A DNA stretch of 64,000 bases from the sequence record SRR31156797_6845. One strand, written 5' to 3'. A program made the translations under genes and the position numbers. The notes under the pieces are model-generated. The model worked only from the letters and a program-made list of their open reading frames with translations. It searched no databases and was not told the origin of the DNA. Shown here one piece after another: positions 15,462-63,034 of the stretch. Positions within the stretch are counted from its first letter, which is position 1. Each line of letters opens with the position of its first letter.

Positions 15462-17909
15462 TTAAAAGCTGAAAAGTTTTTTATACTTGATATAAAAAGA
15501 CATTTCTTCAAGTTCTGGTTGCTCCAAGACATCATTTTCAATAGCCCCAAACTTGGCCCCAACAAAAAAAGTATTAAGTTGGGTCGGCTTCCAGGCAAAG
15601 AGTAACTCGACATTGATGTCATGCTCAAGTTCGTCTTCGTCATCGTACAGATATAACTCTGGATCTTTTTCGACGTAGTCGTCAATAATTGTCAGCCGAA
15701 AGAAAGATCCCGTATCAAGGTGGTACAAAGCCGTGACACCGAGGTAATTCTCTGTAAAAAGTCTCCCGTCATCAACATCAAGTTGGCGATAGATATCTTT
15801 AATACTTAGTTCAATGTGATCAGTTACACTCCAACGAATTTCCGGTTTAATCTCAATAATATCACCGAGACGGTAGTTGTCGGTATCTATTTGAGTACCA
15901 ATTTTACCTGTAACGATAAATCGAAAATTTTTGAATACAGATGTCTCAATTCGCGTCTCAAGCTGATCCTCCGTGAAGTACCTGCTATTTCCATCAATCT
16001 CCAGTGTGTTTTGTAAAAAACGTTTCGCTGTCCGATCTCGATTTCGGTACCCAAGGCGAAACCATGTCTGGTACAAGCCCCAATAGTTTAGCCAAACCTC
16101 TTTAGACTCATTGAGCAATTCACCATCTTGACTTTCTAGACGCACATAGTTGAGTGAGGGCCGGAAACGTACCTTTCCTTTGTCTTTGACTTCAGTATAA
16201 TAATTCAACCCTCCACTAAGAGAGTAGAGCCGATAGTCTACTCGAGTCATATACCCAAGATCTGCACGGAAATCTTCTCCGACATCTAAATACCTGGCGG
16301 CTAAATAGCCTTCACGCCGATTATATTTATAGCGAAGATGTACGGCATCATCCAAATACGTTTGATCGGGATTCGCTCTAAGCACTTGTTCATTTAATGG
16401 CGTCACTCCTGGTATGCCGATCGTATCTTCAGGGTCATCGCATGCGCCATCTTCGTCGCACAGCTCATTGACAATTTCTTCAGGATACTCTGTACCAGAG
16501 TAGAGCCACTGTAACCTAACTTCATTGTGCACTTTGAACTTCTTATAAAAATCAACACCGCCTACAATATTGTAATAATCAGAACCATCGGTTCGTAGTG
16601 TTGAAATCAGCCCGAGTGCACTTCCAGGACTTTGATTAAAGCGATACCGAAAGGCTCCAGAGGTACTATACTTGTCGAGGTCTACACGGTCGGATGAAAG
16701 ATTTCCTGGAACAATCAAGCTCATCTCACGATCATATACAAAAAAATTCCCAGTGGTTAATCTATTAATACTGCCAGAGGCATTGACACCCCCAATTGGG
16801 TCCTCAATATTTCTTGTGTATACGAGATCGAACGGTGTTCCAAAATTTTCGATACTTTTCAAAAAAAAGGGACGCTTTTCAACATCCAGTGGGGTGAACG
16901 GATCATTGATACTAAAGTCCGTCAGGTCGGCTTCGACTTCAAGAAAATTTGGATTGATGGTTGCCCAAAAGCCAAAAGACGGTGTCGGTTTATAGCCAAG
17001 ATCTAAACTCACTTCCGACTTATACTTCTGCTCCCAGCTTTCATCTTCTACCGGATCTCGTTCATGCTCGTTTAACAGTGTTAATCCCGGAACGAGATAT
17101 ATTTTTTTTGGAGGTAACTCTGGTCGTTCATAAACAGTCCTTACTGTGATCGCACTGAGATGGTGCCGAACCTCACGGGGATAATGACGTTTGAACAGTA
17201 GGATTCTCTTTTTGACGTTCTTATCAACAGATATTTCAAGGGTATCAAATGGAATCTTCATTTCAACTTGATACCCAGTATCCGTTATTTTTGTTGCTGC
17301 TGTCCAGTCTGCATCCCAGTCACGGGCACGAGTATCATCCACTCGGTTCCTCACCCAATCACCTTGAACCCCCTTGGCATTGACGAAAAATTCATACGTT
17401 TCGAGTAATTGCCCAGAAGGGTCTATCGCTACACCGACATAATCATCTAGTTCAATGCCGTCTCTATCACGTAACGGTGCTTGTATTTCAGCAGGCGTTG
17501 GGTCAAAAGCTTCAAAAGCGAAAACAAGGCTGTCTTCATGGCGACCTACACGAACGAGAGTCTTTACAGGAGCAGCTTCAAGCCTTGCGGGGTAGGTCTC
17601 GAAAACGATTTCATACTCTGCCGCAGACTTCCAACCAACATCATCAATATTTCCATCAATTGTCAATTCACCGCTAATTTCTGGAGTATGCAGTTCCTTG
17701 ACTTGGAGTAATTCACGAAGGTCCTCAATTTGATCTTGAGGCTCATTGGAATCGTCCTCTGACGAAGTGCTTTCTGCAAATGAAACAACTGGGAATATGC
17801 AACAAAGAGCTATCCAAAACGATACAAGATATGGTCTTAAAGATTTTCTTTGTTGCACAAAGATGCCTTGTTCATTTGCGCAATAATATGAATAGAAATA
17901 CTTAATCAA
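15462..17909 (-). CDS. CBM9-like/DUF5916-type outer-membrane protein
   Basis: Signal-like N-terminus, IDGNIDD..W, YEFFVN..GVQ.D, INPNF.EVEAD, EKRPFF, YTRNI; terminal Phe; start uncertain. Confidence 0.75.
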   Translation of the reverse strand: MIKYFYSYYCANEQGIFVQQRKSLRPYLVSFWIALCCIFPVVSFAESTSSEDDSNEPQDQIEDLRELLQVKELHTPEISGELTIDGNIDDVGWKSAAEYEIVFETYPARLEAAPVKTLVRVGRHEDSLVFAFEAFDPTPAEIQAPLRDRDGIELDDYVGVAIDPSGQLLETYEFFVNAKGVQGDWVRNRVDDTRARDWDADWTAATKITDTGYQVEMKIPFDTLEISVDKNVKKRILLFKRHYPREVRHHLSAITVRTVYERPELPPKKIYLVPGLTLLNEHERDPVEDESWEQKYKSEVSLDLGYKPTPSFGFWATINPNFLEVEADLTDFSINDPFTPLDVEKRPFFLKSIENFGTPFDLVYTRNIEDPIGGVNASGSINRLTTGNFFVYDREMSLIVPGNLSSDRVDLDKYSTSGAFRYRFNQSPGSALGLISTLRTDGSDYYNIVGGVDFYKKFKVHNEVRLQWLYSGTEYPEEIVNELCDEDGACDDPEDTIGIPGVTPLNEQVLRANPDQTYLDDAVHLRYKYNRREGYLAARYLDVGEDFRADLGYMTRVDYRLYSLSGGLNYYTEVKDKGKVRFRPSLNYVRLESQDGELLNESKEVWLNYWGLYQTWFRLGYRNRDRTAKRFLQNTLEIDGNSRYFTEDQLETRIETSVFKNFRFIVTGKIGTQIDTDNYRLGDIIEIKPEIRWSVTDHIELSIKDIYRQLDVDDGRLFTENYLGVTALYHLDTGSFFRLTIIDDYVEKDPELYLYDDEDELEHDINVELLFAWKPTQLNTFFVGAKFGAIENDVLEQPELEEMSFYIKYKKLFSF

Positions 17910-17920
17910 GGCTTATACAG

Positions 17921-18373
17921 TTAGTCTACCGAATAACCACGGCTCTTCATACAATCATTATAACTCTTGTTATATGCAGAGGGGTCACCAGCCGGTGGTG
18001 CAGCCTGGGCCTCCTTTTTTGCCTGACGTCGATTACGAGCACCGCCGGCTACGGCGCCCGTAGCGGCGCCAATCTCAGCAGCGTCATCATACCTTTCATC
18101 ATCACCAACGACTTCAACTGTCCCGCCAACAATTGCTCCTTTTGCAGCTCCCCGAGCAGCTCCTCTTAGGCCAGCCCCCCGTTCAGGCTGCGAAGTTGTT
18201 GCAGGTGCGGATGGATCATAGCCGCTTGAAGATTTAGCGTGTTCCTGACAGGCAGCTTGATCACTCGCCTGTTGAGCCGGATCAGGTGCTCCTTCTGTTT
18301 GGGCAAAACTAAGAGATGATCCAGCAACAAAAAATAATGATATAATGGCACATTGTAATGTTTTCACGCTCAT
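17921..18373 (-). CDS. Exported glycine-zipper protein (YMGG-like)
   Basis: Signal peptide, DQAAC, GAARGAAKGAIVG...GAATGAVAGG, C-terminal CMKSRGYSV; GGAG SD before ATG 18373. Confidence 0.75.
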   Translation of the reverse strand: MSVKTLQCAIISLFFVAGSSLSFAQTEGAPDPAQQASDQAACQEHAKSSSGYDPSAPATTSQPERGAGLRGAARGAAKGAIVGGTVEVVGDDERYDDAAEIGAATGAVAGGARNRRQAKKEAQAAPPAGDPSAYNKSYNDCMKSRGYSVD

Positions 18374-18571
18374 GAACAATATCTCCGTAAAGATGAATAA
18401 AAATAGATATCTACTAGACAAACTACACAATACAACAACCTATTGGACTTCACCGAAGAATGGATTGTAAACAATGGAGTTTACAAATCGCACTTTGTTA
18501 TACTGTCGTGCAGTGAAGGTTGCACCTGCACTTAGGGAATAAAAAATAAACAACGAACATCATGCTCTATT

Positions 18572-18745
18572 ATGAACCAAAGTCAGGCTTTTCTCCATTG
18601 CCTAATACCTGAGAAGCTTGAAATCAACAGGTTATTACCCATACGCGTCAATTTGCCGATTCCTCCACCAAAAGGGCCGGTCCATCTCTGGTCACTTATT
18701 TTTTTACGGCCAGCAGTTGTGATTGGCGCCGAGGTGAGGTGAGGT
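18572..18745 (-). pseudogene. Degenerate 3' fragment of an outer-membrane barrel gene (family often auto-annotated 'neuromedin U')
   Basis: Minus strand reads LTSAPITTA..SDQRWTGPFGGGIGKLTRMG, then after frameshifts PVDFKL and KPDFG; no start or upstream part. Confidence 0.6.
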
Positions 18746-18750
18746 GAGGT
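18731..18750. repeat. Pentanucleotide tandem repeat (GAGGT)x4
   Basis: gaggtgaggtgaggtgaggt. Confidence 0.9.
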
Positions 18751-18772
18751 AAGAATACTATCAACAAAGTGT

Positions 18773-19525
18773 TCATAAGCGAAAAGCAAGTCCAAACATC
18801 GGGCCATGAGTAATAGTATCATAGACAAATCTATCTGGAGTACCTTCGGTACCAGTGCTATAGTCAACCGATAGGGCACGATATTCAAATATCAGTGTAA
18901 GGTAGTCTGTAACATCCCATGCGACTCCGCCTTGCAGGTTCCAGGTAAAATCAGAACCTACTCCGAAACCTCCTATATCGCCCTTAATGATGAGGGACCA
19001 ATTCTCAGCAATTTGCGGCATCCAGCGAATGCCGACAACAGGATCTACCCAGGCCTCATCACTTTCAGCCTGCCTAGTACCGTTTATATTGACATCAACA
19101 TCCATGTCCCACCAGCGGACACCACCATAAAAAGCAAGAGGGTCTTCAATGGTCTTGATCCTGTACATGGCATAACCTTCAAGAATTTTCTGAAAAATAT
19201 CTGTTTCAGTAGTGGTTAAGCCACCAGCTCCTGTCGCTGTACTGCTGAGGTCCATAAAATTATATGCCAGGCTGAACCCATAGCCACTTACATGTTGCGC
19301 TTCAGCATGGATCATTCCTCCTAGCTGCAGCGAATCGAAGATGTCATCAGAAGTAATATCTATATCAGCACCCTCAATGGCACCAACAGAGGAATCACCG
19401 GTAATGTATGGCAGCAACAGGTAAGGGGCTATCACGAAATCCCATTTATCGGCAGCATGGCATACTTTTGGAGAAAGGAACAATGAGAGAAGACATAAAT
19501 AGATAACATGATGGGTTTTTATCAC
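18773..19525 (-). CDS. Outer-membrane beta-barrel protein
   Basis: Signal peptide, W.F.IAPYL, WVDPVVGIR, GDIGGFGVGSDFTW, C-terminal GPMFGLAFRL; GTG 19525 after GGAGG. Confidence 0.8.
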   Translation of the reverse strand: MIKTHHVIYLCLLSLFLSPKVCHAADKWDFVIAPYLLLPYITGDSSVGAIEGADIDITSDDIFDSLQLGGMIHAEAQHVSGYGFSLAYNFMDLSSTATGAGGLTTTETDIFQKILEGYAMYRIKTIEDPLAFYGGVRWWDMDVDVNINGTRQAESDEAWVDPVVGIRWMPQIAENWSLIIKGDIGGFGVGSDFTWNLQGGVAWDVTDYLTLIFEYRALSVDYSTGTEGTPDRFVYDTITHGPMFGLAFRL

Positions 19526-19653
19526 GATCACCTCCGCATAGTTTGGAAAAAGGTAGAAGGAACAATGAGCTGATTGTAACTGTTTATTGCAATGATGCAG
19601 GGACTGCCTAGTGTCGTAACCCCATAATAGTAACTCATCCCATGTATGCACAA

Positions 19654-19693
19654 AGTTTATCCCAAGAACACGTATTCGTTCTTGGGATAAGCT
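19654..19693 (-). terminator. Hairpin/terminator after SYLF gene
   Basis: TTATCCCAAGAAC...GTTCTTGGGATAA inverted repeat. Confidence 0.7.
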
Positions 19694-19701
19694 ATTACCT
19701 A

Positions 19702-20268
19702 TTATTCAATGTCGAGTTTCTTAAAGCTTGAGCCTTCCCATGAGAGGTCAGCCATCAAACCTTTATCTCCGAAAATAAACGAAACAATGTCCTTTTTAAG
19801 ATTGGTAGTGTCAATGTCACCGCCTGCGCCAACTTTGGCTACGGCAACAGAAGCATCCACGCCGAATTCCCATTCGCGCTTACCACTGGTGAAACTTGCC
19901 AACACTTCGTCAGTATTCAATACAAGAATCATAGAATGCTTTGCCACTCCGAGAAGGGCGCCGGCCTTAAGAGCTCGTGTACTGTAATAGAGAGGCTCTG
20001 TACTCCCATCTGTCAGCACGCATTTACCTCCTTCATAACCAATACCAATACCCATTTTTTTGATGTCAGGACAGACCACAACACCTTTCGCGCCGGCAAA
20101 AACGGCATCTGCTCCTTTTGTCTCTGCTTTAAATTTTGCTGCTACGGCCTTGGACTCAGCCAAAAGTTCAGCGGCTTCGTCTGAGGTAAAAGCTGCCATT
20201 GCAAAACTAGACATAAGTAGAACAGTGATACTTGAGATGATCGATGAATAAATCATTTTTTGTAACAT
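19702..20268 (-). CDS. Exported lipid-binding SYLF/Ysc84-domain protein
   Basis: Signal peptide, AKGVVVCP..K.G.GIG.E.G, GVDASVA, KGLMA.LS.EGS. Confidence 0.85.
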   Translation of the reverse strand: MLQKMIYSSIISSITVLLMSSFAMAAFTSDEAAELLAESKAVAAKFKAETKGADAVFAGAKGVVVCPDIKKMGIGIGYEGGKCVLTDGSTEPLYYSTRALKAGALLGVAKHSMILVLNTDEVLASFTSGKREWEFGVDASVAVAKVGAGGDIDTTNLKKDIVSFIFGDKGLMADLSWEGSSFKKLDIE

Positions 20269-20378: not shown

Positions 20379-20990
20379 CTAAATACCGCCTTTTGCCATC
20401 CATCCAAGCATAAGTACTCCCACCGCAGCGATCCAACTACCGACTACCCTCACTGCCACGTGTGTCCAGGCAGGTCGAAGTGAAATAACGAAGCTCGAGA
20501 TTATAGCAACCAAGACAAAGAGCGTTGCAGCGGTACCAACTAAGCCTAATATCCCTGAATCACCTTTCATGGCTATGCCATTATAAAAACCGTGTATACC
20601 ACCTACTGTTACAACTAATACAGTAGTAATATTGTCTGGAAGCTTGAGATCGGCGGCAATGCAAGCACCCAGGAGAAAAAACGAGAGCATTGGCAGATGG
20701 AAAAGCGATGAACTTGTAACCAACAGCCCAACCAATCCACCTATCAACCAGGCTAAAGGAAAAAAGAATAACGTCCGCCTTCCTTGAATTACACCTCTAA
20801 GTCCAGCATACAAACATACTGCTACTGCTGGTATAAAATCTTCAGGTGTTAATAGGAGGTGGCCTATACCATCATAGACGGGTCCCATACCAGTTGTTAC
20901 CAGATGAGCTGCTGCATCTTGAGGGTGCAGTATTACTAGAAATATTGTTGTGTGGGTAAGGAGCAGTATCCCTGATTTCAGCCTATTCAT
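20379..20990 (-). CDS. HupE/UreJ family membrane protein
   Basis: AAAHLVTTG, DGIGH, IHGFYNG, RVVGSWIAA; ATGA overlap with upstream gene. Confidence 0.82.
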   Translation of the reverse strand: MNRLKSGILLLTHTTIFLVILHPQDAAAHLVTTGMGPVYDGIGHLLLTPEDFIPAVAVCLYAGLRGVIQGRRTLFFFPLAWLIGGLVGLLVTSSSLFHLPMLSFFLLGACIAADLKLPDNITTVLVVTVGGIHGFYNGIAMKGDSGILGLVGTAATLFVLVAIISSFVISLRPAWTHVAVRVVGSWIAAVGVLMLGWMAKGGI

Positions 20991-21598
20991 GCCAGCGCCT
21001 GCCACAAGAAAAAAATTCCCATGGCGGTGATAAAAGCTCCGGAAGTACGCAATACCAGCTGGCCTGATGGCCAGCGATGAATCAGGCCGATAGCAATGCC
21101 AACACCATGTAAACATCCAGTAGCAATGACAAACCCTATACTGTAAAGGAGGCCGCTTTGCCCTGCAGGCAATTCAGTACCGTGCGCGTGACCATGAAAA
21201 ATAGAGAAACAACCAACAATAATTATGGCTACTGTCAGTTTCGAGTGCACCTCACCTAAAACCATTAATCCAAGAACGATAGCTGATGCAGCAATACCAA
21301 CTTCGATTCCTGGAACGAGAATACCAAGTAACCCCATCATGGCACCCAGTGACATCATCAAGGGAAAGGTTATCGGGAGAACCCAGACAGCAGGGTTTCC
21401 AAGTTGTGCTCCCCAGAGTCCGACTGCAACCATAGCTATGACATGATCAAGTCCGGACCAGGGATGTTCGAGGCCTGTGAGGAGACTGACACCCTGACCC
21501 TGTTGAACATGAGCGAGAACAGGAGCAGCGTAGACAAGACAGCCTGTAAAGAAAAAAAGACATATCAGCGAATTGTAACGGGTTCGATGACCGATCAT
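20987..21598 (-). CDS. HupE/UreJ family Ni/Co-permease-like protein
   Basis: LAH, HPWSGLDHVIAMVAVGLW, FHGHAHGTELP, ATGCLH; ATGA overlap. Confidence 0.9.
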   Translation of the reverse strand: MIGHRTRYNSLICLFFFTGCLVYAAPVLAHVQQGQGVSLLTGLEHPWSGLDHVIAMVAVGLWGAQLGNPAVWVLPITFPLMMSLGAMMGLLGILVPGIEVGIAASAIVLGLMVLGEVHSKLTVAIIIVGCFSIFHGHAHGTELPAGQSGLLYSIGFVIATGCLHGVGIAIGLIHRWPSGQLVLRTSGAFITAMGIFFLWQALA

Positions 21599-22605
21599 TT
21601 TAAAAGGCCTCCAATAAAAATGGCTGTCCGTTGAAATGTCCAGTATGCCCCCAGACTTCCTACTGTGTACCCTGGCAGAACCATAACCCATTGCGGCCAA
21701 TGAATCTGGAGGATCCTAAAAGAACTCGCCAGGGCCAAGGCAATAAAGATAAAGGTCAGCTGCCCTAACTCAACACCGACATTAAAGCTCAGTAAAGCCC
21801 AGGGGAGTTCAGCTTTAGGCATTCCTGTTGTGGTAAGACCGCTGGCGAATCCAAACCCATGAAGTAACCCAAATAAAAATGCAACAACCCAAGGGTATTT
21901 GATGGTGAGACTTGTACCTCCACCCCGTGAACGGAAAATTTCCGGTCCCAGGAAAAGTATACTAAGGGCTATAGCTGCATTGAGTGGTGGAAGAGGTATG
22001 TTAGCCAAGCCCAAAGTGGCAAGAGCCAGGGTGATACTGTGGGCAAAAGTAAAGGAAGTGATAGTCTTGATAAGTGTTGCTCTGTTCTGCACGATAAAGA
22101 GCAAACCTAATACAAAGAGAAGGTGATCAACACCGAGAAAAATATGGTAAACCCCGAGTAAGATATATTCTCCTGCCGTAGTATGCCAAGATCGATCACC
22201 TCGAAGTTCTGTAAACGGTTTTGTAGGCCGAACCACAGAGGTCATTGTAGTGGAATCCAGACGATTTAATCGAACATACACATCCGTTATTGTCGACTCA
22301 AGACCTGGAAAACGAATTATTGCTCCCTCAATGCTTTTTGATTCAACTTCTACCACCCAACGAAAAATGGTTGAATCAACCATATGTCGCTCAGTAGGCT
22401 GGATAATATTCTTCCAGTTTTCGGGCATTTGTAAACGAGCAGGGTGAGGTTTGCCATAATAGATAGGCGCCTTCCAGGTTACATCGTATCTATCAGGGTT
22501 CAGCTGGTTAATTTCCAGTGTCCCCGGTTGGGATTCATGAGCAAGAGCTGAGGTAATGCTAGCCAACAGAAGAAGAAACGGGAATAAACAAGTCAAACGA
22601 ATCAC
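21595..22605 (-). CDS. HupE/UreJ_2 family protein with periplasmic N-domain
   Basis: LAHESQP, HIFLGVDHLLF, TSFTFAHSITL, FGLLHGFGFA, FNVGVELGQL. Confidence 0.9.
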   Translation of the reverse strand: MIRLTCLFPFLLLLASITSALAHESQPGTLEINQLNPDRYDVTWKAPIYYGKPHPARLQMPENWKNIIQPTERHMVDSTIFRWVVEVESKSIEGAIIRFPGLESTITDVYVRLNRLDSTTMTSVVRPTKPFTELRGDRSWHTTAGEYILLGVYHIFLGVDHLLFVLGLLFIVQNRATLIKTITSFTFAHSITLALATLGLANIPLPPLNAAIALSILFLGPEIFRSRGGGTSLTIKYPWVVAFLFGLLHGFGFASGLTTTGMPKAELPWALLSFNVGVELGQLTFIFIALALASSFRILQIHWPQWVMVLPGYTVGSLGAYWTFQRTAIFIGGLLK

Positions 22606-23504
22606 AACAGATCCTCCTGAGCCGCTTGAACTTCTGGCACTACCTGAGCATTTTTGCCCCCACCCTTCTGATGTTCAATGACAATGGTGTATTTGTCACG
22701 GAGTCCTTTATAAATGTTTTCTTTGAGTTCTTTTTTGGTAGCAGCGCTCCATTCCCATTCGACTGTATCCTTGATTTCATCTAAACGTGGTAGCCTGGCG
22801 GCAACGTGGTCGGTAACAAAAATCAGGTGAAGGCCGTAACCGGATTGAACAGGGCCACTCCACTGCCCTGGGACCATCTTGGCCAGGTCGAGGCTGAATG
22901 GTTTTCCAAATAGCTTTGTAATTTCACTGACAGGAGTTAGGCCAAATGCTTTTGGTTGCATTAACCTGTCACCTAAAGAATCTGGATCAGTATTATTATT
23001 CTCCGACAATATGGACAGTATTTGAACTGCCTCCTCATCTGCCGTGATACCTCGTTGAGTTACATCAATAAAGACATGGCGAAAGGCTACCTGCGGTTCA
23101 ATGTTAAATTTATCAGGATTGCTTTCTAGAAACTGTTGGAGCTGTTCATCTGTTGGGATTACAGTCCCAGCTAGATCATCACTCATCAACTCCAGTTTTT
23201 GTCTCAAACGGTTGCGAATAACCGGATCATTCTTGTCTAGCCCAAGGCCCAAGGCTTCACGATATAAAATCTCTTCACGTAAATAGCTGTCTACGAGTCC
23301 TGCAAGTTCCTCCTCTGACGGGGTCCGTTGCCGGGTTCTGGCATAACTCGCCTTCAAAAACTCTATCTGCCCCTCTGTAATGACGATCCGACTCGATTCT
23401 TTATCGATCGGATCGTCAAACACTTCGAATAGCAGAAAAAGCGCTGCCCCTATCAATAGAAAGTGAACCAGGGGTTCCCTAAGTAATGATCTCACAGTTA
23501 TCAA
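22602..23504 (-). CDS. Membrane-anchored parvulin/PpiC-type (rotamase-like) protein
   Basis: LREPLVHFLLIG, EEILYREAL.LGLD..D.VIR.RL.QK, WSGPVQSGYGLHL. Confidence 0.88.
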   Translation of the reverse strand: MITVRSLLREPLVHFLLIGAALFLLFEVFDDPIDKESSRIVITEGQIEFLKASYARTRQRTPSEEELAGLVDSYLREEILYREALGLGLDKNDPVIRNRLRQKLELMSDDLAGTVIPTDEQLQQFLESNPDKFNIEPQVAFRHVFIDVTQRGITADEEAVQILSILSENNNTDPDSLGDRLMQPKAFGLTPVSEITKLFGKPFSLDLAKMVPGQWSGPVQSGYGLHLIFVTDHVAARLPRLDEIKDTVEWEWSAATKKELKENIYKGLRDKYTIVIEHQKGGGKNAQVVPEVQAAQEDLL

Positions 23505-23509
23505 TAGGA

Positions 23510-25453
23510 TTAAGGCATATACCAGATAGGCGATGAATAGGCCCTTTCCTGATGAATCAGTTTCGCTTCTTTGGGAACTTCTGCACCGAGGCGTACTTTA
23601 TCATACAGAACCCAACGTGGTGTAGGGATTTCCAGAATCCGGGTATAATAGAAAGCCTTTACATTTGGGTCAAAATCAGGATCAGTCCAAATAGCACTCA
23701 GTTCTGCTGCTCCAATAGTATTTGTCCAGGTTGCAGCTTCAAGATCAACGGTGTTACCAACCGGCGTCTTACAGCGACCGTCTTTTCCAATAGATCTCCC
23801 GTCTGATACCGCTACATCATAAATACGCTCATGGGTTTTGCCATCTTTGTCAAGCCAGCCTTTGATAATTTGGACACGGTCTAGATTCGCACCAACAGGG
23901 TCACGCAATGCCACTACCATAAAGTTTGGCCCTTTATCTGCAGTCGCCTTGGTCAAATCTCCGCCCATTGGAACGCCCTTTTCGTACCCTATAAAAGCTG
24001 GAGTACGGCTGCGCAAATCATTATCTTCATAATCCCAACCACCAAAAAAACGAACTATCATACGGGGGCCGGTAGTTGCATATGTTTCCTTACGCTGCAT
24101 GGCGTCAAAAATAGCCTCACGAGTATTCTCTGTTGCCCAGACAGCTTGATAACCAGATGCAGAAAGCTCATAGCCTTCAATAGCTCCAAGTTTTGACTTA
24201 ACAAAGGGGTGCATTACTCGAGTTGGAGAAGGTTCTACGCTGGTAGATTTACCAAAAAAGTTATCCTCCTCTGCAGTTGCAAGACCAGTGTGACTGTCAG
24301 TTGCCCCAATCATGCCGAATTTGTAAGGATTTGTGCCAAATTGCTGTTCAAGGACCAGACCATTTTTAAGGGCTTCACGTGCATATTCCCGCTGTAGCAT
24401 ATCAGGTTTCTTCAGTTCTGTGATATCCAGGTTGCCCTTGTCCAAGGTTTCGTAATCGGCAAATTCGTCATTGGGTGAAAGAGATGGGTGTGTCTCCCCG
24501 TCGCCTTTTATTTGAGTTACTTCATATAGTGGTTCCCACTTTGCACGTTGTTTTACATAATTTTCATCAACCTTTCCTCCTGCATAGGTATCTACCATAG
24601 GAAACATCCAACCGTTGGAGAGGTTACCGTTATGAGAAATTGCAAATGCTTGACCACCAGTTTTTGTCTTGTACGTCTCTAACCATTTGTACAAATCCAA
24701 TGGGTCCTGCGTTCCAAGGGGAGGTTGAGTTGTGAGCGGTATTACCATCCGTGCCCGGATACCGTCGTCACGCAAAATAACGTTGCGATGCAGATTGAAG
24801 CCTTTAGGAACTGACGTCCACTCAAAACCGATCAAGGCGGTAAAATGACCAGGGTCGTTAAATTGATCGGCAAGCTTTGTCGTACTATCCCAAATATTAT
24901 TATAGATTGAAGATCCTGGAGAATATTGAGCAACAAGTTCCTCAGGGATAGTCATCTGGGAAAAATTGGTGATGAGGTCAAAAGCAGCTTTTCCAGCAGC
25001 CTCACCACCTTTTGCAAAACCTTCAGCCCATTCTTTACCTTTTGGAATTGCCATAATGTTAGCTGCCCCACGTTGGATATCAGTGGCAATTCCCATCATG
25101 TCAGAATGGTCTGTTATTACCAGCCAGTCCAGCGGCCGACTTAGCTTGACAGGCAGGCCAGTCGACGATTTAATTTCTTCACCACGGGCAAGACGGTAGG
25201 CATCTTCATGGCCGAGAGTATTGCCAAACAGCCCGGCATCAAGGGATAACCCCGTATGCAGGTGAGTATCCCCCCAGTAGACACGGCTAGGGAAGCTGCG
25301 TTGAGCGTAGGGTGAATAGGTCTTACCAGGGTATAAGCTCTCAATGACTTCAAGATTAGGACTTCCCATGTCCATTGCCAGTGCTGCTGTTGACATCGCA
25401 GGGATAGTTAAAAAAAGAATGCACTTCTTGATCAGTTTACGATTAATGCTCAT
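23510..25453 (-). CDS. DUF3604 exported PHP-like metalloprotein
   Basis: Signal peptide; [52 protein letters not shown]-terminal [11 protein letters not shown]. Confidence 0.9.
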
Positions 25454-25833: not shown

Positions 25834-25887
25834 TTGACAAATATTATAAATGAGCATTAAATGAGTACACTAAATGCTCATTTAATG
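25834..25887 (+). promoter_or_regulatory. Putative sigma70 promoter overlapped by nested inverted repeats
   Basis: TTGACA 25834, TTAAAT 17 nt later; TAAATGAGCATT/AATGCTCATTTA and CATTAAATGAG/CTCATTTAATG inverted pairs. Confidence 0.6.
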
Positions 25888-25901: not shown

Positions 25902-27239
25902 ATGGAAAGCAACAATCAAAGAATGGAAGCCACATTTAACCCTACCGACTTCAACAGTTCAGGTAATACACTTGAACTACTCTCAAAATTGATCATCCAT
26001 AGCCCTTACGGGTATATAGTTACAGACTGCACAAAAACAGACAGTCCCGTTATCTTCGTAAACCAGGCTTTTCAAGCATTAACCGGTTACACATCCGAAG
26101 AAATTATTGGTCATAGTTGTAGACTTTTATTGGGGCATGATACCGAACAGAGTTCTCTTGAGGCAATGCGCCGTGCTTGTCAAAGCGGACACGAATACAC
26201 TACTGTAGTCCGCAACTACAAGAAGGATGGATCGCTTTTTTATAACGAACTATCTATGGTGCCAATCAATGATCAGGACGGGAATACAAAAAATCGTTCT
26301 TGGATGCTCAAAGATATCACTGACCAAGTTGAAATAATTGAAAATTTGGAAACTGATATAACCCTCAAAGAGAACAGGTTAAATGCATATTTAACTAACT
26401 CAAAAGAGGCGATTTGGCGTATTGATTTCAACCCTCCCCTATCGCTTGAAGAGCCTGAATCCGTACAGGTTCGGCAACTTCTCAACAATAGTATCTTTAC
26501 TGAAGCAAACGATGTAGCTGCCAAAATATATGGGTTGGAAAAGGGAACCGATATAATTGGAATGCGACTCAATAAATTCATGAAGACTTCTGATCCTGAA
26601 AACCAGAAACAGATGACCAAACTTGTGCAAAGTAACTTCCGCTTGGACAACTTGATCTCAAAAGAAATATCGGTTGATGGTACCTCTAAAATGTTATGGA
26701 ATAATATCACCCCCTCGATCCTCCATGGTAAGGTGATATCCATTTGGGGAACAAGTCTCGAAGTATCGGATCTTTTTAAAACTCAAAAAGAACTTAAGAA
26801 ATCCCAAAAAAGACTCAAAAAGAAAGAAAAAAAACTACGAAAAAAAAATGTTGCGCTTAAGGAACTCATAGTTCAGGTCGATTTCGAAAAAAATCATTTT
26901 AAAGATCGCATCATCGCTAACATTCAACATATCCTATTGCCATCTTTAGATAGGATTAAGTTAAACCGAGGAGGCCTGGAACACATAGAGCAATTAAGAA
27001 AAGACCTTGAAGACCTCACTTCATCCTTCGGTTATAAAATAGCACATGAAAAAACGAAATTATCTCCCCGCGAAGTTGAAATCTGCAATTTAGTTAAAAG
27101 TGGTTTATCGAATAAAGAAATTTCCAGCTTGCTAAATATTGCCCTTTACACAGTCCAAAAGCATCGGCGTGTAGCTAGAAAAAAAATGGGGATCACTAAC
27201 AAAAGTATTAATTTACAAACCTATCTTAATTCACTCTAA
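25902..27239 (+). CDS. LOV-like PAS-PAS-coiled coil-LuxR HTH transcriptional regulator
   Basis: IGHSCRLL, RNYKKDG..FYNEL PAS; C-terminal LSPREVEICNLVKSGLSNKEIS..LNI...TV.KHR...RKKMG. Confidence 0.88.
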   Translation: MESNNQRMEATFNPTDFNSSGNTLELLSKLIIHSPYGYIVTDCTKTDSPVIFVNQAFQALTGYTSEEIIGHSCRLLLGHDTEQSSLEAMRRACQSGHEYTTVVRNYKKDGSLFYNELSMVPINDQDGNTKNRSWMLKDITDQVEIIENLETDITLKENRLNAYLTNSKEAIWRIDFNPPLSLEEPESVQVRQLLNNSIFTEANDVAAKIYGLEKGTDIIGMRLNKFMKTSDPENQKQMTKLVQSNFRLDNLISKEISVDGTSKMLWNNITPSILHGKVISIWGTSLEVSDLFKTQKELKKSQKRLKKKEKKLRKKNVALKELIVQVDFEKNHFKDRIIANIQHILLPSLDRIKLNRGGLEHIEQLRKDLEDLTSSFGYKIAHEKTKLSPREVEICNLVKSGLSNKEISSLLNIALYTVQKHRRVARKKMGITNKSINLQTYLNSL

Positions 27240-28170: not shown

Positions 28171-29298
28171 TCATTGGCCGGAAACACTGACCGATCGGTC
28201 CAGCATCTTTTCCAACCCTCCATGCTCTTCTGGAGTATAACCAAATACCTCCTGCCATATTTCGCTGCTTTCCATGCAAAAGTATACACAGGTCCGTTCT
28301 GCAGTATATTTTTTTAATTCGTCAAGAATGAATTGATACATGGCGACCCTTTGTGGTCGGAAGTAACGGTACTTATTATCAAGGCCATTGACAAATTCTT
28401 CGTAAAAAAAGGTCGAATGAGGAAAACGTTCTGTGGCAATATTCTTTAGTGACGGCAGGTAGCGTAATGCCCCCATGCTTATCCAAGCGATTTTGTCAGC
28501 AGGTACGGCCTGAAACAACCGCCTTATGGTCTCCCGGTACCCTTGCTGCCAGTTATCGTGATAAATGATGGGGTCAAAATGAAAGGCAAGATGATATCCC
28601 CACTCGGCTGCTTCGAATGCAGCCTTGAGGCGTTCGTCGAGAGTTGCAGTACGTAACTCTTCTTTGGCCATTATAATTGGGCTATTAAGTGACCAGGCAA
28701 CTACAGTGCGACCGTTGTGTGGTACGTGTTCAAGCTGCTTAATAATATTGCACTTGGTCTTTAATTCAAGCACAGCATTACCTTTGTTGCTCATATAGCT
28801 GATTAACCGAGAACTTAACCCTGTCAACGAGTCAATGGCAAGGCTATCTGTAAATTCACCGGTCCCTATCCGGTAAAACTGTTCAGGATGGTTGAGCAGC
28901 ACGTTGTCCAATTCGGCAAACATGTCCTCAACATTTACACAGAAACTGAGCCATGGATTGTTCAGATAGGCCTGTAAAATACAGTACACACAATCCATAG
29001 GACAGTTCATTCCTATATTAAGGACCTGGTATCCGCAGCAGGTATATTCCCTCGTCCCCGGACAAGGTTTAAAAAACACCCCCCGATTTTTGCATAACAG
29101 CAAGTGGTGCTTCCCGAAGGTGAGGTTTTCAGGAAAAGTTCCTGGTATATCAGGCAGGGCTCCATCTTTTAGGATGGTAACCGGGAGGTTAGCCCTCTCT
29201 ATTATCTGTTGGGCATATGGGTTGTCCAAGCACTCTTCGGTAACATGAATATGAGTTATATACTGTGCGGGATCACCATAGGAAGAAACTTTATTCAC
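28171..29298 (-). CDS. Spore photoproduct lyase-like radical SAM protein
   Basis: CPMDCVYC radical SAM motif, LQAY, HNGRT..AWSLN, FHFDPII, YFCME. Confidence 0.85.
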   Translation of the reverse strand: MNKVSSYGDPAQYITHIHVTEECLDNPYAQQIIERANLPVTILKDGALPDIPGTFPENLTFGKHHLLLCKNRGVFFKPCPGTREYTCCGYQVLNIGMNCPMDCVYCILQAYLNNPWLSFCVNVEDMFAELDNVLLNHPEQFYRIGTGEFTDSLAIDSLTGLSSRLISYMSNKGNAVLELKTKCNIIKQLEHVPHNGRTVVAWSLNSPIIMAKEELRTATLDERLKAAFEAAEWGYHLAFHFDPIIYHDNWQQGYRETIRRLFQAVPADKIAWISMGALRYLPSLKNIATERFPHSTFFYEEFVNGLDNKYRYFRPQRVAMYQFILDELKKYTAERTCVYFCMESSEIWQEVFGYTPEEHGGLEKMLDRSVSVSGQ

Positions 29299-29300
29299 AC

Positions 29301-30146
29301 TTACTGCTCTCCAATTAGCAAATATTTTTCTGGAAGTTTTAAATAACGCTGCCCCTCATGTTTACGACCGTGTTTAATACATCCATTTCCATAGATAGTA
29401 CACTTCCGCTGCAGTTCTGTAATAACGAGTGACCGCTGCTCTTCGTTTATACGTCTGCTTTCTAGCAAGTTACACAAAGCCTGTATCCGGTATGTATCCA
29501 TCCCCATTCTATGAATAACCGAAAGCTGGTCGCTGCGACCGCCATCTTTACAAAGAAGCGGGGTGTCAATCCGTAAAAAAGGAATAAGACAACTCATTCT
29601 GAGCCAGAGATCATAATCTTCGCAGCATGGCAATTGTTCATCAAAAAAGCCAAATCTATTAAAGCATGTTTTCTTTGCCATCACAGTCGACATTCCGACC
29701 ATGCACATACGCAAACTTGCTTCAAAAATATCTCCATGGGGAGGATCATGTTTCTTTTTCTGATTAACCCTCTCACCGTTGCGATACCATATTTCACGCG
29801 TATGGGATATGAAGAAATGTGGTTGGCTATCCATTGCCTGATACTGCTGTTTTAATTTCCCTGGAAGCCACCAGTCATCGGAATCCAGGAAGGCTACATA
29901 CTCATACCTGCTCAACCTGATTCCTGTATTCCTGGCAGCAGCAGCGCCGCTGTTTTTTTGATACCGGTACGATATTGGAATAGAACTGCTGCAAGAAATA
30001 CCCTGTACCAGCTGCTCAGTATTATCAGTTGACCCGTCGTCGACTATAATCAACTCAGCGGGAGGAAGGGTTTGCTGTATCACCGACGAAATTGAACGAG
30101 AAAGGAAATCAGCTCGGTTAAATGTGGGAATAATAACGGAAATCAC
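29301..30146 (-). CDS. Glycosyltransferase family 2
   Basis: ISVIIPTFNR, VDDGSTD, AARN.G, AFLDSDD, EDYDLW. Confidence 0.92.
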   Translation of the reverse strand: MISVIIPTFNRADFLSRSISSVIQQTLPPAELIIVDDGSTDNTEQLVQGISCSSSIPISYRYQKNSGAAAARNTGIRLSRYEYVAFLDSDDWWLPGKLKQQYQAMDSQPHFFISHTREIWYRNGERVNQKKKHDPPHGDIFEASLRMCMVGMSTVMAKKTCFNRFGFFDEQLPCCEDYDLWLRMSCLIPFLRIDTPLLCKDGGRSDQLSVIHRMGMDTYRIQALCNLLESRRINEEQRSLVITELQRKCTIYGNGCIKHGRKHEGQRYLKLPEKYLLIGEQ

Positions 30147-54607: not shown

Positions 54608-55375
54608 ATGAGTAATCAACTAGCAGACATTGCCGTTGAAATCCGCGATCTTTCGTATCGTTACAACCAGCTGCCGGTGTTAACTGATGTCAATCTTGAC
54701 ATTAAAGCAGAAGATACGCTTTGTATTGTCGGGCCCAATGGTGGTGGAAAAACGACACTGGTTAAGCTTATCATCGGGCTCCTGAAGCCTAACACCGGCA
54801 CGATCAAAATTTTTGGAAAGCCACCCCATGATGCCGCGCTTGAATTTGGTTACGTACCGCAACACGCCTACTACGATCCTCATTTTCCTGTGACGGTTAA
54901 AGAGGTTGTCAGCATGGGCAGGATTGGTCATTTACAAAACGGTCGTTTCTCCAGACAAGATAAGGAAAAAACAATGGCAGCCCTCTTGGATGTGAATCTT
55001 GAGGAAAAAGCAAGTCGTCCTTTTTCTGCACTCTCCGGCGGACAGCGGCAAAGGGTCTTGATCGCTCGTGCACTTGCCTCAGAAGGTCGAATACTCATTT
55101 TAGATGAGCCTACTGCAAACATTGATCATGAATCTGAAGGAAATTTTTACGATCTTTTAAGTAAGATCAAACACAGGATGAGCATCCTCATGGTCACCCA
55201 TGAAGTTGGATTTGCATCGACCTTTTTTGAACGTATCGCGTGCGTGAATAATTTTGTAATAATTCACCCAACCAGTCAATTGACAGGGGAGTTAATCCAG
55301 AACATGTATGGTGGAGACCTGCAAATGATCAGACATGACCATGTCTGCAGCCATGAGGGCCATTCCATTGGTTGA
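54608..55375 (+). CDS. Zn/Mn-type metal ABC transporter ATP-binding protein (ZnuC-like)
   Basis: GPNGGGKTT, GYVPQ, LSGGQRQR, DEPT, His-rich tail HDHVCSHEGH. Confidence 0.88.
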   Translation: MSNQLADIAVEIRDLSYRYNQLPVLTDVNLDIKAEDTLCIVGPNGGGKTTLVKLIIGLLKPNTGTIKIFGKPPHDAALEFGYVPQHAYYDPHFPVTVKEVVSMGRIGHLQNGRFSRQDKEKTMAALLDVNLEEKASRPFSALSGGQRQRVLIARALASEGRILILDEPTANIDHESEGNFYDLLSKIKHRMSILMVTHEVGFASTFFERIACVNNFVIIHPTSQLTGELIQNMYGGDLQMIRHDHVCSHEGHSIG

Positions 55376-56219
55376 TTTCCTTGCCTTATTGCTCAATCCT
55401 GATATCCCTTTTTTACGATATGCGATCATCACTGGGCTTCTTGCCTCAATCCCCTTCGGCATCATAGGTACTTATGTCGTTATTCGCCGCATCAGCTATA
55501 TTGCCGGAGCCGTATCCCATTGTGTGCTCGGCGGTATTGGTGCGGGCCTTTACGGCCAGCAGGTTTTGGGAATCTCCTGGTTGACACCGCAACTTGGTGC
55601 CGCCGCAGTAGCTTTGTTTTCAGCTATTGTCCTTGCTTTGGTCAGCATGTATGCTCAGCAACGTGAAGACAGTGTTATTGGTGCTCTGTGGGCATCAGGA
55701 ATGGCCATTGGACTATTATTTATAGCCAAAACACCTGGCTACATAGACCCCATGAGCTATCTATTCGGCAATATTTTACTGATCACAACAAATGACATTT
55801 ACTATGTACTCTTGCTTGACATCTTAGTCATTAGTGTTGCAGTCTATTATTATAATTCTTTCCTCGCTTTGTGCTTTGACGAAGAATTTGCTCGGTTACG
55901 CGGCATAAAAACCCACTGGCTGTACATGCTGCTGCTCTGCCTTACCGCACTTACAATTGTTCTTTTAGTACGCATCGTTGGCATTGTCATGGTAATTGCC
56001 CTGCTAACTCTTCCCGCAGCTATCGCCGGAAACTTTGCTCGAAATATCATACAGATGATGACAATCGCCACTTTTTTCTGCGGCCTGTTCATTGTTTCAG
56101 GACTTGCACTCAGCTATGAATTGGATATCCCCAGCGGGCCTACCATTATTTTGCTTGCCGCAGGCACTTACCTTATCACCGTTATTGGCTTTCGTGTGGT
56201 GAACTTGGCGCGCAGATAA
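55335..56219 (+). CDS. Zn/Mn-type metal ABC transporter permease (ZnuB-like)
   Basis: AVSHCVLGG, YLFGNIL, FDEEFA..RG, PSGPTI; true start may be slightly downstream. Confidence 0.88.
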   Translation: MTMSAAMRAIPLVDFLALLLNPDIPFLRYAIITGLLASIPFGIIGTYVVIRRISYIAGAVSHCVLGGIGAGLYGQQVLGISWLTPQLGAAAVALFSAIVLALVSMYAQQREDSVIGALWASGMAIGLLFIAKTPGYIDPMSYLFGNILLITTNDIYYVLLLDILVISVAVYYYNSFLALCFDEEFARLRGIKTHWLYMLLLCLTALTIVLLVRIVGIVMVIALLTLPAAIAGNFARNIIQMMTIATFFCGLFIVSGLALSYELDIPSGPTIILLAAGTYLITVIGFRVVNLARR

Positions 56220-61465: not shown

Positions 61466-63034
61466 ATGAAAACCATACGTAAAGTTCTGCCGTTTACAAT
61501 ACCCATTATAGGGTTCATTATATTTTTTATTGGGATTAACATGTTCCAATATTACAGAGTTAAACAAACCATAAAAAGCGGCATCATTCAGACCACAGGC
61601 GAATCAGAACTTGCAGAAATCCAATCATTTTTTTCAGGGGTAACCAGCAAACTAAATATCGTCAGGGACTGGGGGAAAAACGGGGTACTCGACACCAGCG
61701 ACTCTATAGATCTCAACAAAAAGTTCATGCCACTGGTGGAACACCAGGATCACATCAGCGGCCTCATCCTGGCCAACGACCAGGGAGAAGAATACTTTCT
61801 CATCAACCAAAGCCCGCACCTGACAACACGGACGACCAAGCTGCTCAATGGGAAGGCAGAGATGAATTTTGTAGAATGGGCATCCCCAGAAAAAGCGCTC
61901 CGCAAATGGCAGGAGACTGCAGCCTATGATCCGCGTAATCGTCCTTGGTTTCGCCAAGACCCAACCGAGTCAGATATTTTCCTCTCAGATATCTACACAT
62001 TTCATCATACCCAGAAAAAAGGATTTACCGCTTCTGTAGCTTGGACGAACAAGGAAAAGAAAGCACAACAGCACGTTTTTGCCATAGACATACTTTTTGA
62101 CGAAATTGAACTCCTTTTAAAGACCATTAATAAAAAGAAATCTTCGTTACTTTTTCTTGCCAATTCCAAGAATAACTATTTTATCACCGAACAACCTGAG
62201 ATAGCAGATCGTTACGATCCTGACCATCTTGCAGGGGCCAGAACAGTACTGCCTGAAGTCATTGAGATATGGAAAGGTGAGGGAGCACCTGTCTCAAGCC
62301 CTCTGGAACTGCGCATTAATAACCAGCAGTGGATCGCCTCTTTTCAACCCCTTTTCCCTGAACAAGCGTTTTTGTGGATAGGGGTAATATCAAATGATAA
62401 AGCCCTGCTAGGATCCCTGGAAAAATCGCTTTTCACAATCGACATCTTTGATGTCGGCATTGCTTTCACTGCTGCCTTGCTGCTCTTTTTTGTAATATGG
62501 AAAACAGGTCTATTCCGTCTTGATCCGCCACATGTCCCAACATCAAAGGAAAGATTTAGTCAATATCTAGCTGCGGGTGAAGGTGCAGCAATCGAATTTA
62601 AATCAACCATCCGGACAAACCTGAAAACTAATAAACAAGGGAAGGAGATTGAATTTGCCTGGCTCAAGGCATTAACAGCCTTTCTCAATTGCCAGGGGGG
62701 AGCCTTACTTCTAGGAGTGAATGACAACGGTGAACTACTGGGTTTGGACGCAGATATTTTTGAAAATGATGATAAAATCCTGCTTCATATAAAGAATCTT
62801 ATAAACCATCACATCGGTGCTGAATTTTCGTCATACATCTCATTTTCATTGCTGAATATGAACCAGGGAAAGGCAATGATGATTGAGACCCTTCCAGCAG
62901 CCAACCCTGTCTTTTTAAAAATTGGTAAAAACGAAGAATTTTATATCAGATCAGGCCCTTCTTCTATAAAACTGACACCAAGCCAAACGGTTAGCTTTGT
63001 GCTCCAGCATCAGGAGCAGAAGCAGCCAAATTAA
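61466..63034 (+). CDS. Membrane protein: dCache-like periplasmic domain plus C-terminal AlbA_2/Schlafen domain
   Basis: Two TMs flanking YDPRNRPWF; C-terminal GE...IEFKST, AFLN..GG.LLLGVND.G, FYIRSGPSS..L. Confidence 0.8.
   Translation: MKTIRKVLPFTIPIIGFIIFFIGINMFQYYRVKQTIKSGIIQTTGESELAEIQSFFSGVTSKLNIVRDWGKNGVLDTSDSIDLNKKFMPLVEHQDHISGLILANDQGEEYFLINQSPHLTTRTTKLLNGKAEMNFVEWASPEKALRKWQETAAYDPRNRPWFRQDPTESDIFLSDIYTFHHTQKKGFTASVAWTNKEKKAQQHVFAIDILFDEIELLLKTINKKKSSLLFLANSKNNYFITEQPEIADRYDPDHLAGARTVLPEVIEIWKGEGAPVSSPLELRINNQQWIASFQPLFPEQAFLWIGVISNDKALLGSLEKSLFTIDIFDVGIAFTAALLLFFVIWKTGLFRLDPPHVPTSKERFSQYLAAGEGAAIEFKSTIRTNLKTNKQGKEIEFAWLKALTAFLNCQGGALLLGVNDNGELLGLDADIFENDDKILLHIKNLINHHIGAEFSSYISFSLLNMNQGKAMMIETLPAANPVFLKIGKNEEFYIRSGPSSIKLTPSQTVSFVLQHQEQKQPN

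Follow-up and report, generated by a model that had tools for sequence, protein, structure and literature searches.

In a 64,000-nucleotide (nt) stretch of DNA from sequence record SRR31156797_6845 (the window), five co-oriented genes encode a DUF3604 protein, a parvulin-like foldase, and three HupE/UreJ-type proteins, which we call HupA, HupB, and HupC (Table 1). We find that the conserved unit consists of DUF3604, the foldase, and HupA, three genes rather than five. Each part of this trio resembles a known kind of protein, and the unit itself is real and apparently undescribed; the searchable literature, within whose reach subscription papers largely do not fall, contained no description of it. 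We propose that the trio provides a dedicated periplasmic service that folds and metalates DUF3604, a reading to which we give about even chances of being correct.

A conserved unit of DUF3604, foldase, and HupA

The initial annotation described the five genes as abutting or overlapping, with a 5-nt gap between DUF3604 and the foldase gene, a GTGA overlap between the foldase gene and HupA, and ATGA overlaps between HupA and HupB and between HupB and HupC, and these junctions match the coordinates exactly. An alternative start for the foldase gene is a GTG at 23495. The annotation also tied DUF3604 and the parvulin-like protein to all three HupE/UreJ paralogs, which it suggested might act together as a heteromeric metal-delivery complex. 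Linkage and co-occurrence uphold that tie for one paralog, HupA; the heteromer is not supported as a general rule, on evidence presented with HupB and HupC below.

We surveyed the best 80 of at least 593 DUF3604 loci. The foldase is encoded in 38 of these 80 loci, HupA in 36, and both in 35, and wherever both are present (35 of 35 loci) the foldase gene is followed by an adjacent HupA gene on the same strand. This gene order is not a product of chance, and the pair was found in 11 phyla according to record labels. A single entry from an unpublished genome, G038, enters into each of the 80-locus, 50-genome, and 60-genome counts and into both the 57- and the 70-row alignment; no conclusion hinges on it.

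Genome-wide searches gave the same picture. The nearest relatives of HupA come from genomes of the order to which Desulfosediminicola (Desulfocapsaceae) belongs, Desulfobulbales, and we refer to it as the host's order. Ten of its 201 genomes carry a full DUF3604, and all 10 carry the foldase and HupA; among the other 191 genomes, the foldase was found in two and HupA in one. Our second sample comprised 251 alphaproteobacterial genomes from the order of Aliisedimentitalea, presumably Rhodobacterales. DUF3604, the foldase, and full-length HupA share an identical set of 31 of these genomes and occur in none of the other 220. Other HupE/UreJ-2 proteins matched in 162 of the 251 genomes, and every DUF3604 carrier still has the HupA type, which the other proteins do not replace.

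The association does not depend on the genes lying side by side. In 9 of the 31 alphaproteobacterial carriers, no DUF3604 gene has a foldase gene within 10 kb (in some of the nine, the genes are on separate contigs of a draft assembly), and 46 of the 73 DUF3604 copies are >10 kb from a foldase gene. Those 73 copies are accompanied by 34 foldases, or roughly one foldase-HupA pair per one to five enzyme copies, and HupA adjoins and follows the foldase in 33 of the 34. Among 41 searched genomes with a DUF3604 locus that lacks the foldase, a strong foldase match was found elsewhere in 28 and a profile match in 4 more; 3 had partial hits, and 6 had no foldase. Genome G161 (locus L123) carries foldase-HupA-HupB-HupC without an adjacent DUF3604 gene, and its two DUF3604 copies are on another contig. 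A maturation service would be expected to leave just such a pattern, in which a single helper pair is shared by many clients and linked to them in trans.

The trio does not belong to the accessory systems of hydrogenase or urease. A Pfam scan of 53 of the 55 open reading frames (ORFs) of at least 150 amino acids (aa) in the window, the other two being antisense ORFs, found no hydrogenase or urease family, in agreement with the initial annotation, and neither enzyme is among the recurrent neighbors of DUF3604 loci. In 60 genomes searched, the hydrogenase family PF00374 matched in 35 (5 weakly) and urease alpha in 13. Twelve of the 47 genomes in which the foldase matched strongly, many of the 47 being metagenome-assembled genomes (MAGs), matched neither enzyme family (15 if weak hits are ignored; 11 of 46 without G038), which bears out the proposal of a pathway separate from both enzymes. 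Neighbors that do recur are sulfatases, found in 19 of the 80 loci with 22 of 25 copies co-oriented (a raw count), and outer-membrane barrel-like proteins, found in eight and seven loci.

Predicted properties of the three proteins

By modeled fold and ligand order, DUF3604 is placed in the PHP superfamily. Its AlphaFold 2 (AF2) model (predicted local distance difference test score, pLDDT, 94.4) has a PHP barrel with large insertions and a C-terminal immunoglobulin (Ig)-like domain. Compared with known structures in VIA-align, the model matched 3E38 (Z 15.6, root-mean-square deviation [rmsd] 3.4, 231 residues aligned) and 2ANU (Z 15.0, rmsd 3.6, 213 aligned); the first nine rows are all PHP proteins (Z 7.9 to 15.6), and the next row has a Z of 4.2. 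An Atlas search gave a weak PHP lead (0.76), and sequence and profile searches found no PDB relatives. The predicted trinuclear ligand set consists of H64, H66, D72, H116, E211, H222, H274, D386, and H388, mostly located at strand ends in the AF2 model. This HxH...D, H, E, H, H, DxH set has the same order as H61, H63, D68, H93, E135, H142, H203, D260, and H262 of No-PDE (PMC11656708). In an 80-row alignment of the query and representatives covering >80% of it (about 33 to 54% identity, from 81 length-selected rows), H64 is kept in 79 rows; H66 and H388 in 78; D72, H116, E211, and H274 in 77; and H222 and D386 in 76, with the neighboring D115 kept in 77. The PHP-type ligand motifs of the initial annotation are thus present, with each ligand kept in 76 to 79 of 80 rows, and a complete PHP metal site is supported by the ligand set together with the modeled barrel and its structural matches.

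The PHP barrel is shared with the trinuclear phosphoesterases BVU_3505 (3E38), TM0559 (2ANU), PsfC (7RTY), RNase AM, and Sb-PDE/No-PDE, and 3E38 also resembles DUF3604 in having a C-terminal domain after the barrel. DUF3604 differs from these proteins in its length of about 600 aa, its large insertions, its low identity to them (13 to 16%), and its helper genes, none of which are reported for the relatives. DUF3604 is most likely a trinuclear PHP-type metallohydrolase, a phospho(di)esterase that acts on an organic ester; according to a 2026 preprint (10.64898/2026.10.18.759936), neither metal binding nor activity has been reported for the family. We scored 175 full-length DUF3604 proteins with simple patterns and found a twin-arginine translocation (Tat) motif in none, a hydrophobic N-terminus in 165, and a lipobox in 16. 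Because Tat motifs are absent and hydrophobic N-termini nearly universal, export by Sec, unfolded and metal-free, is most likely. The family is large, with >8000 close relatives and 1600 clusters at 50% identity (E ≤ 1e-30). Putative joins of the DUF3604 domain to SnoaL, cytochrome c, cadherin/LRR surface domains, and an N-terminal membrane domain were also seen (clusters P0166, P0190, P0202, P0174, with four members, and P0204, with one).

The foldase is of the PrsA/PEB4 type, with an N- and C-terminal chaperone domain around one parvulin domain and a membrane tether. A family profile built from 68 relatives matched PEB4 (3RFW, E 1.8e-11, profile positions 63 to 271) and also HP0175, SurA, and PrsA over the chaperone and parvulin domains; these proteins and PpiD likewise combine a chaperone cradle with one parvulin domain. 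Active parvulins have two His, Asp/Cys, two hydrophobic residues, Ser/Thr, and a GG(D/E)LG loop. In a 70-row alignment of the foldase, D179 is kept in 64 rows, F199 and F203 in 66, and S221 and H226 in all 70, whereas, unlike in PEB4-type proteins, the first His (H143) is His in 30 rows and Gln in 40, and the GG(D/E)LG loop is replaced. Because of these two changes, isomerase activity is doubtful, and the foldase more likely acts as a holdase than as an isomerase. It also differs from PEB4-type proteins in its coupling to a metal permease and in its hydrophobic N-terminal anchor with a conserved EPLxHF motif (P11 in 69 of 70 rows, H14 in 64, F15 in 69, and G19 in 69), whose conservation suggests a partner within the membrane. 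Like the lipase-specific membrane foldase LipH (PMC13381987), which is a precedent for a dedicated anchored helper, the foldase is membrane-bound and seems to serve a single family of exported proteins; we do not claim homology.

HupA has the architecture of anglerases of the HupE/UreJ-2 kind in its domain order, His1, and Ang/ZrgA-like beta-sandwich. A signal peptide is followed by His1 (codon at 22539-22537), a soluble domain of ~125 aa, and a six-helix HupE/UreJ-2 domain (PF13795). As initially annotated, all three HupE/UreJ proteins have a His after the predicted signal cleavage site (HES after SALA, HVQ after PVLA, and HLV after DAAA), with cleavage before His1 predicted from the Ala-x-Ala pattern. 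The membrane domain has invariant H154, D160, H161, H189, E222, H249, and E279, and the spacing of H154/H161/H189 equals that of the modeled H194/H201/H229 site of MmAng-2a. For this membrane domain no HupE-family structure surfaced, and helical matches (Z ≤ 9.4) were uninformative. In VIA-align, the soluble domain matched ZrgA (8EZW) with a Z of 9.7, PA4063 (7AHW) with 9.6, and RbAng-1a (9GCE) with 8.5 (rmsd 2.8, 101 aligned); rmsd values were 2.6 to 2.8 over about 100 aligned residues, Z differences of ~1 are near ties, and the Foldseek probability was 1.00 for all three.

The available text of PMC12537917 describes signal peptide, N-terminal His, beta-sandwich, and HupE/UreJ-2 His spacing in RbAng-1a and MmAng-2a as we see them in HupA. 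The soluble domain of HupA is about 40 aa shorter than that of RbAng-1a, and HupA is tied to the foldase and DUF3604, neither of which we found as a neighbor in the text or source data searched from that paper; it does report metallophosphatase genes next to Ang-2 genes, a point in favor of the role that we propose below. A phmmer search gave no match between HupA and 9GCE, which have 8% identity in the structural alignment, and other Ang-1-like proteins match HupA in the membrane domain only; HupA is likely a subfamily separate from Ang-1 and Ang-2. The accessible parts of the reports on ZrgA of V. cholerae (PMC9820375) and PA4063 (PMC8561739) describe periplasmic metal binding by proteins with the fold of the HupA soluble domain. 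Those are soluble zinc binders with His-rich regions and partner ATP-binding cassette (ABC) systems, whereas the HupA domain lacks a His-rich loop and forms one polypeptide with a secondary permease.

The first mature residue of HupA is His in 44 of 56 rows and Asp in the other 12 (L010, L065, L073, L074, L080, L085, L091, L093, L102, L104, L106, and L109). The Asp1 variants occupy five separate positions in a tree whose backbone is poorly resolved, never in the clade that carries HupB and HupC, and may mark a different metal. The N-terminal His is reported in 100% of Ang-1 and Ang-2 proteins in the available text of PMC12537917.

In three independent clusters (P0419, P0422, and P0424), a consistent Pro/Ala linker connects a HupE/UreJ-2 protein whose N-terminal domain is His-tipped with an exported 5'-nucleotidase (Metallophos plus 5_nucleotid_C), and by analogy these fusions point the same way as folding and loading of an exported enzyme by the trio. 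Other clusters fuse HupE/UreJ-2 to cytochrome c, TPR, or a Vgb-lyase-like propeller. We set aside most HupA::DUF3604 and foldase::HupA joins as read-through artifacts because the downstream signal peptide is kept or the linkers are garbled. P0180 (HupA::DUF3604), a single sequence on one 4.9-kb contig, was not accepted as a natural fusion; it is possible that P0180 and P0412 (three members) are real, and we give them little weight.

HupB, HupC, and the surroundings of the cassette

HupB and HupC look like a separate two-gene unit, an optional addition to the trio. HupB carries HPWSGLDH and FHGHAHGTE, by which it is a canonical HupE/UreJ protein with HPXXGXDH and FHGxAHG motifs. H45, D51, H52, F78, E99, H139, and E142 are conserved in 23 of 23 rows (some of them partial duplicates), and they correspond, at an offset of 9, to residues reportedly essential in Rhizobium leguminosarum HupE. 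The HPXXGXDH signature of HupE/UreJ is given in the available text of PMC7689651, and canonical Ni/Co permeases of this family (PF04955), as described there and in the accessible part of PMC2667541, share it and FHGHAHG with HupB. Unlike them, HupB lies outside a hydrogenase or urease cluster and is followed by a degenerate paralog. That paralog, HupC, has HLLLTPED in place of HPxxGxDH and IHGFYNG in place of FHGHAHG, so it departs from the canonical motifs; it retains the conserved His1 and conserved residues of its own. HupC and HupB have 24% identity (hhalign probability 90.7), and BLAST found no significant similarity among HupA, HupB, and HupC.

The distribution of the two genes bears on the idea that the three paralogs form an obligate heteromer delivering metal to DUF3604. 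Translational coupling in the window speaks for it, as do the A-B-C order, seen in 11 of the 12 cassettes found in the host's order, and the placement of all 19 rows with HupB or HupC, from several phyla and with His1 in every one, in a single 21-row HupA clade (support 100/100). However, HupB occurs in 5, HupC in 6, and both together in 5 of the 80 DUF3604 loci; the 31 alphaproteobacterial carriers of the trio yielded no close HupC-type match (E ≤ 1e-50); six loci (L130, L146, L147, L148, L150, and L154) have a canonical HupE with a degenerate partner and no trio; and the twelfth cassette (G223) is A-C. Because HupB and HupC are confined to one HupA clade and paired elsewhere, a three-subunit complex is not required, and we regard an obligate heteromer as improbable. 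A local accessory role is possible, since A-B-C is the norm in the host's order. HupC nearly always lies immediately 3' of a HupB-type gene, and the tandem is a candidate heterodimeric permease. A NiFe hydrogenase is encoded elsewhere in 11 of 11 searched cassette carriers of the host's order, where it could benefit from Ni taken up by HupB. Tandems of HupE and degenerate HupE without DUF3604 were noted at L130:6118-7303, L148:883-2079, and L151:908-2061. In L148 the pair and an ABC-3 metal transporter are in convergent orientation, and a pair in G278 is convergent on the trio.

Four further co-oriented envelope genes (15462..20268) each occur in few of the 80 DUF3604 loci and are outside the conserved unit. 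Genes resembling this set also come after the cassette in L133, L125, L029, and L129. On the other side is a divergent PAS-LuxR regulator, and in 3 of the 80 loci a full-length relative is encoded upstream of DUF3604. The inverted repeat near this regulator is possibly an autoregulatory operator; similar AGCATA-n3-TATGCT arms are found upstream of the PAS-LuxR genes of L008 and L051. Guanine-plus-cytosine (GC) content is level throughout the region, Rfam matches or riboswitches were found neither in the window nor in four related loci, and promoter-like sites show no excess (17, versus 24.2 in shuffles).

Table 1. Features of the cassette and its surroundings in the window
Feature	Coordinates	Strand	Remarks
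DUF3604 (PF12228), 647 aa	23510..25453	-	Core gene; Pfam E 4e-246
Foldase, Rotamase_2, parvulin-like	22602..23504	-	Core gene; Pfam E 5e-10; TTG start
HupA (HupE_UreJ_2)	21595..22605	-	Core gene; Pfam E 2e-40, residues 147-296
HupB (HupE_UreJ)	20987..21598	-	Accessory; Pfam E 9e-51
HupC (HupE_UreJ)	20379..20990	-	Accessory; Pfam E 2e-8, 34.5 bits (weak pass of cut-off)
Ysc84/SYLF protein	19702-20268	-	Co-oriented local addition
Outer-membrane barrel-like protein	18773-19651	-	Co-oriented local addition
Glycine-zipper protein	17921-18430	-	Co-oriented local addition
CBM9-like protein, 815 aa	15462-17909	-	Co-oriented local addition
PAS-LuxR regulator	25902..27239	+	Divergent; Pfam
Inverted repeat, candidate operator	25847..25887	.	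Just upstream of PAS-LuxR gene

Elsewhere in the window, an ABC ATPase and an ABC-3 permease (ZnuBC-type metal transporter) are encoded at 54608-56219, 29 kb from the cassette, and none of the adjoining ORFs of at least 150 aa is a binding-protein gene. Upstream of ssb, at 28171-30146, a spore photoproduct lyase-like radical S-adenosylmethionine (SAM) gene precedes a GT2 glycosyltransferase gene by 2 nt. At 61466-63034, adjoining a solute-binding protein gene, is a gene whose product combines a weak Cache domain with a Schlafen/AlbA_2 domain at its C-terminus.

Proposed role and alternatives

Folds, ligand sets, gene order, and co-occurrence are the observations from which our proposal starts. 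DUF3604 is probably the client enzyme of the foldase and HupA. Its export route would be Sec, and because it would cross the membrane unfolded, both its folding and the uptake of its three metal ions would have to take place in the periplasm. There, the exported apo-DUF3604 would be held by a dedicated holdase/foldase, the anchored parvulin-like protein, and HupA would sit in contact with this foldase in the membrane and supply metal on the periplasmic side, drawing on its His1-tipped ZrgA-fold domain and intramembrane His site. Metal might flow in either of two ways, with HupA capturing periplasmic ions or passing ions outward. A single foldase-HupA pair would serve every DUF3604 paralog of a genome. 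The metal may be Zn, by analogy with the nearest folds, or else Ni, Co, or Cu; the substrate may be an organic ester freed in catabolic islands, which frequently carry genes for arylsulfatases and outer-membrane channels as well. HupB and HupC would be a Ni/Co-type uptake unit that joined in one clade, perhaps raising or altering the metal supply.

Several points weigh against this proposal. Transport direction is its weak point: HupE/UreJ proteins described in the available text of PMC7689651 are importers, anglerases are proposed to feed metal inward in that of PMC12537917, and a classical importer orientation moves metal away from a periplasmic enzyme, which a delivery model must account for. 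RbAng-1a binds Cu and Ni and is slightly destabilized by Zn according to the same part of PMC12537917. The closest characterized structural relatives, Sb-PDE and No-PDE, carried a complete trinuclear zinc site when isolated from a heterologous host, and no helper is mentioned (PMC11656708). His1 of HupA is swapped for Asp in the 12 rows listed above, and apparent HupA fusions with DUF3604 or the foldase mostly look like read-through artifacts. The foldase-HupA pair is absent by profile in six DUF3604 genomes, one of them a chromosome-level MAG (G023) and another a long-contig MAG (G031), and G152 has foldase-HupA-HupB-HupC (L122:6212-10749) in a genome in which DUF3604 was not found. Finally, our Fisher tests on co-occurrence treat related genomes as independent.

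Because HupE proteins import, anglerases are proposed to work inward, and Sb-PDE and No-PDE load zinc without a mentioned helper, we entertained other explanations. HupA could be an anglerase importer, with DUF3604 acting upstream to free a metal or nutrient, or with both serving a metal-poor niche, and with the foldase folding DUF3604 or the HupA domain. The family's known role in Ni/Co import, the fold shared by the HupA domain with ZrgA, the solute-binding protein of zinc import, the canonical HupE pair added in one clade, and the recurrence of outer-membrane channels near DUF3604 are all in keeping with uptake. We nevertheless consider it unlikely: it leaves the tie of the HupA type to the foldase in 35 of 35 loci unexplained, genomes with other HupE/UreJ-2 importers still carry the HupA type whenever DUF3604 is present, and the Rfam search of the window and four related loci returned no riboswitch. 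Somewhat less likely still is that the foldase matures DUF3604 while HupA clears competing Cu and Ni into the cytoplasm and the enzyme loads itself with the right, more weakly binding metal. That arrangement retains the known inward direction, PHP relatives do load zinc by themselves (PMC11656708), and the accessible text of PMC12537917 gives RbAng-1a a dissociation constant (Kd) of 74 nM for Cu versus 220 nM for Ni; yet the HupA domain is no nearer RbAng-1a (Z 8.5) than the zinc binders (Z 9.6 to 9.7, near ties), and Asp1 variants should chelate Cu less well. A mobile cassette whose genes hitchhike without a functional link would fit the patchy spread over 11 phyla and the counter-examples in both directions, but the co-occurrence persists unlinked in 9 of 31 genomes and the foldase is found elsewhere in 32 of 41 genomes with a foldase-less locus; we regard this as very improbable.

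The fold-and-metalate proposal can be widened. HupE/UreJ-2 anglerases of this kind might be periplasm-facing metal-insertion machines rather than importers, bound to the foldase through its His14 anchor and loading multi-metal, Sec-exported hydrolases (DUF3604, and 5'-nucleotidases in the fusions), with His1 and Asp1 forms for different metals; HupB and HupC would then form a heterodimeric HupE permease, the first of its kind, in which one subunit is active and the other degenerate. We offer this joint reading tentatively, as more probably wrong than right; if true, it would amount to a general, undescribed metalation route for exported enzymes.

New here are the co-occurrence in trans, the ratio of one pair to many clients, the counter-examples, the 5'-nucleotidase fusions, the single-clade origin and independence of HupB and HupC, and the Asp1 variants. 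For the HupA subfamily, "hydrogenase/urease accessory protein" is a misleading label. How exported enzymes come by their metal in the periplasm, where metal is not buffered, is poorly understood, and the trio is a small test case of enzyme, foldase, and permease that is present in cultured marine isolates; cultured carriers include Algibacter mikhailovii, Shimia sp., and Aliisedimentitalea scapharcae. It puts the proposed inward direction of anglerases to the test, and roles for the very large, unstudied DUF3604 family would follow.

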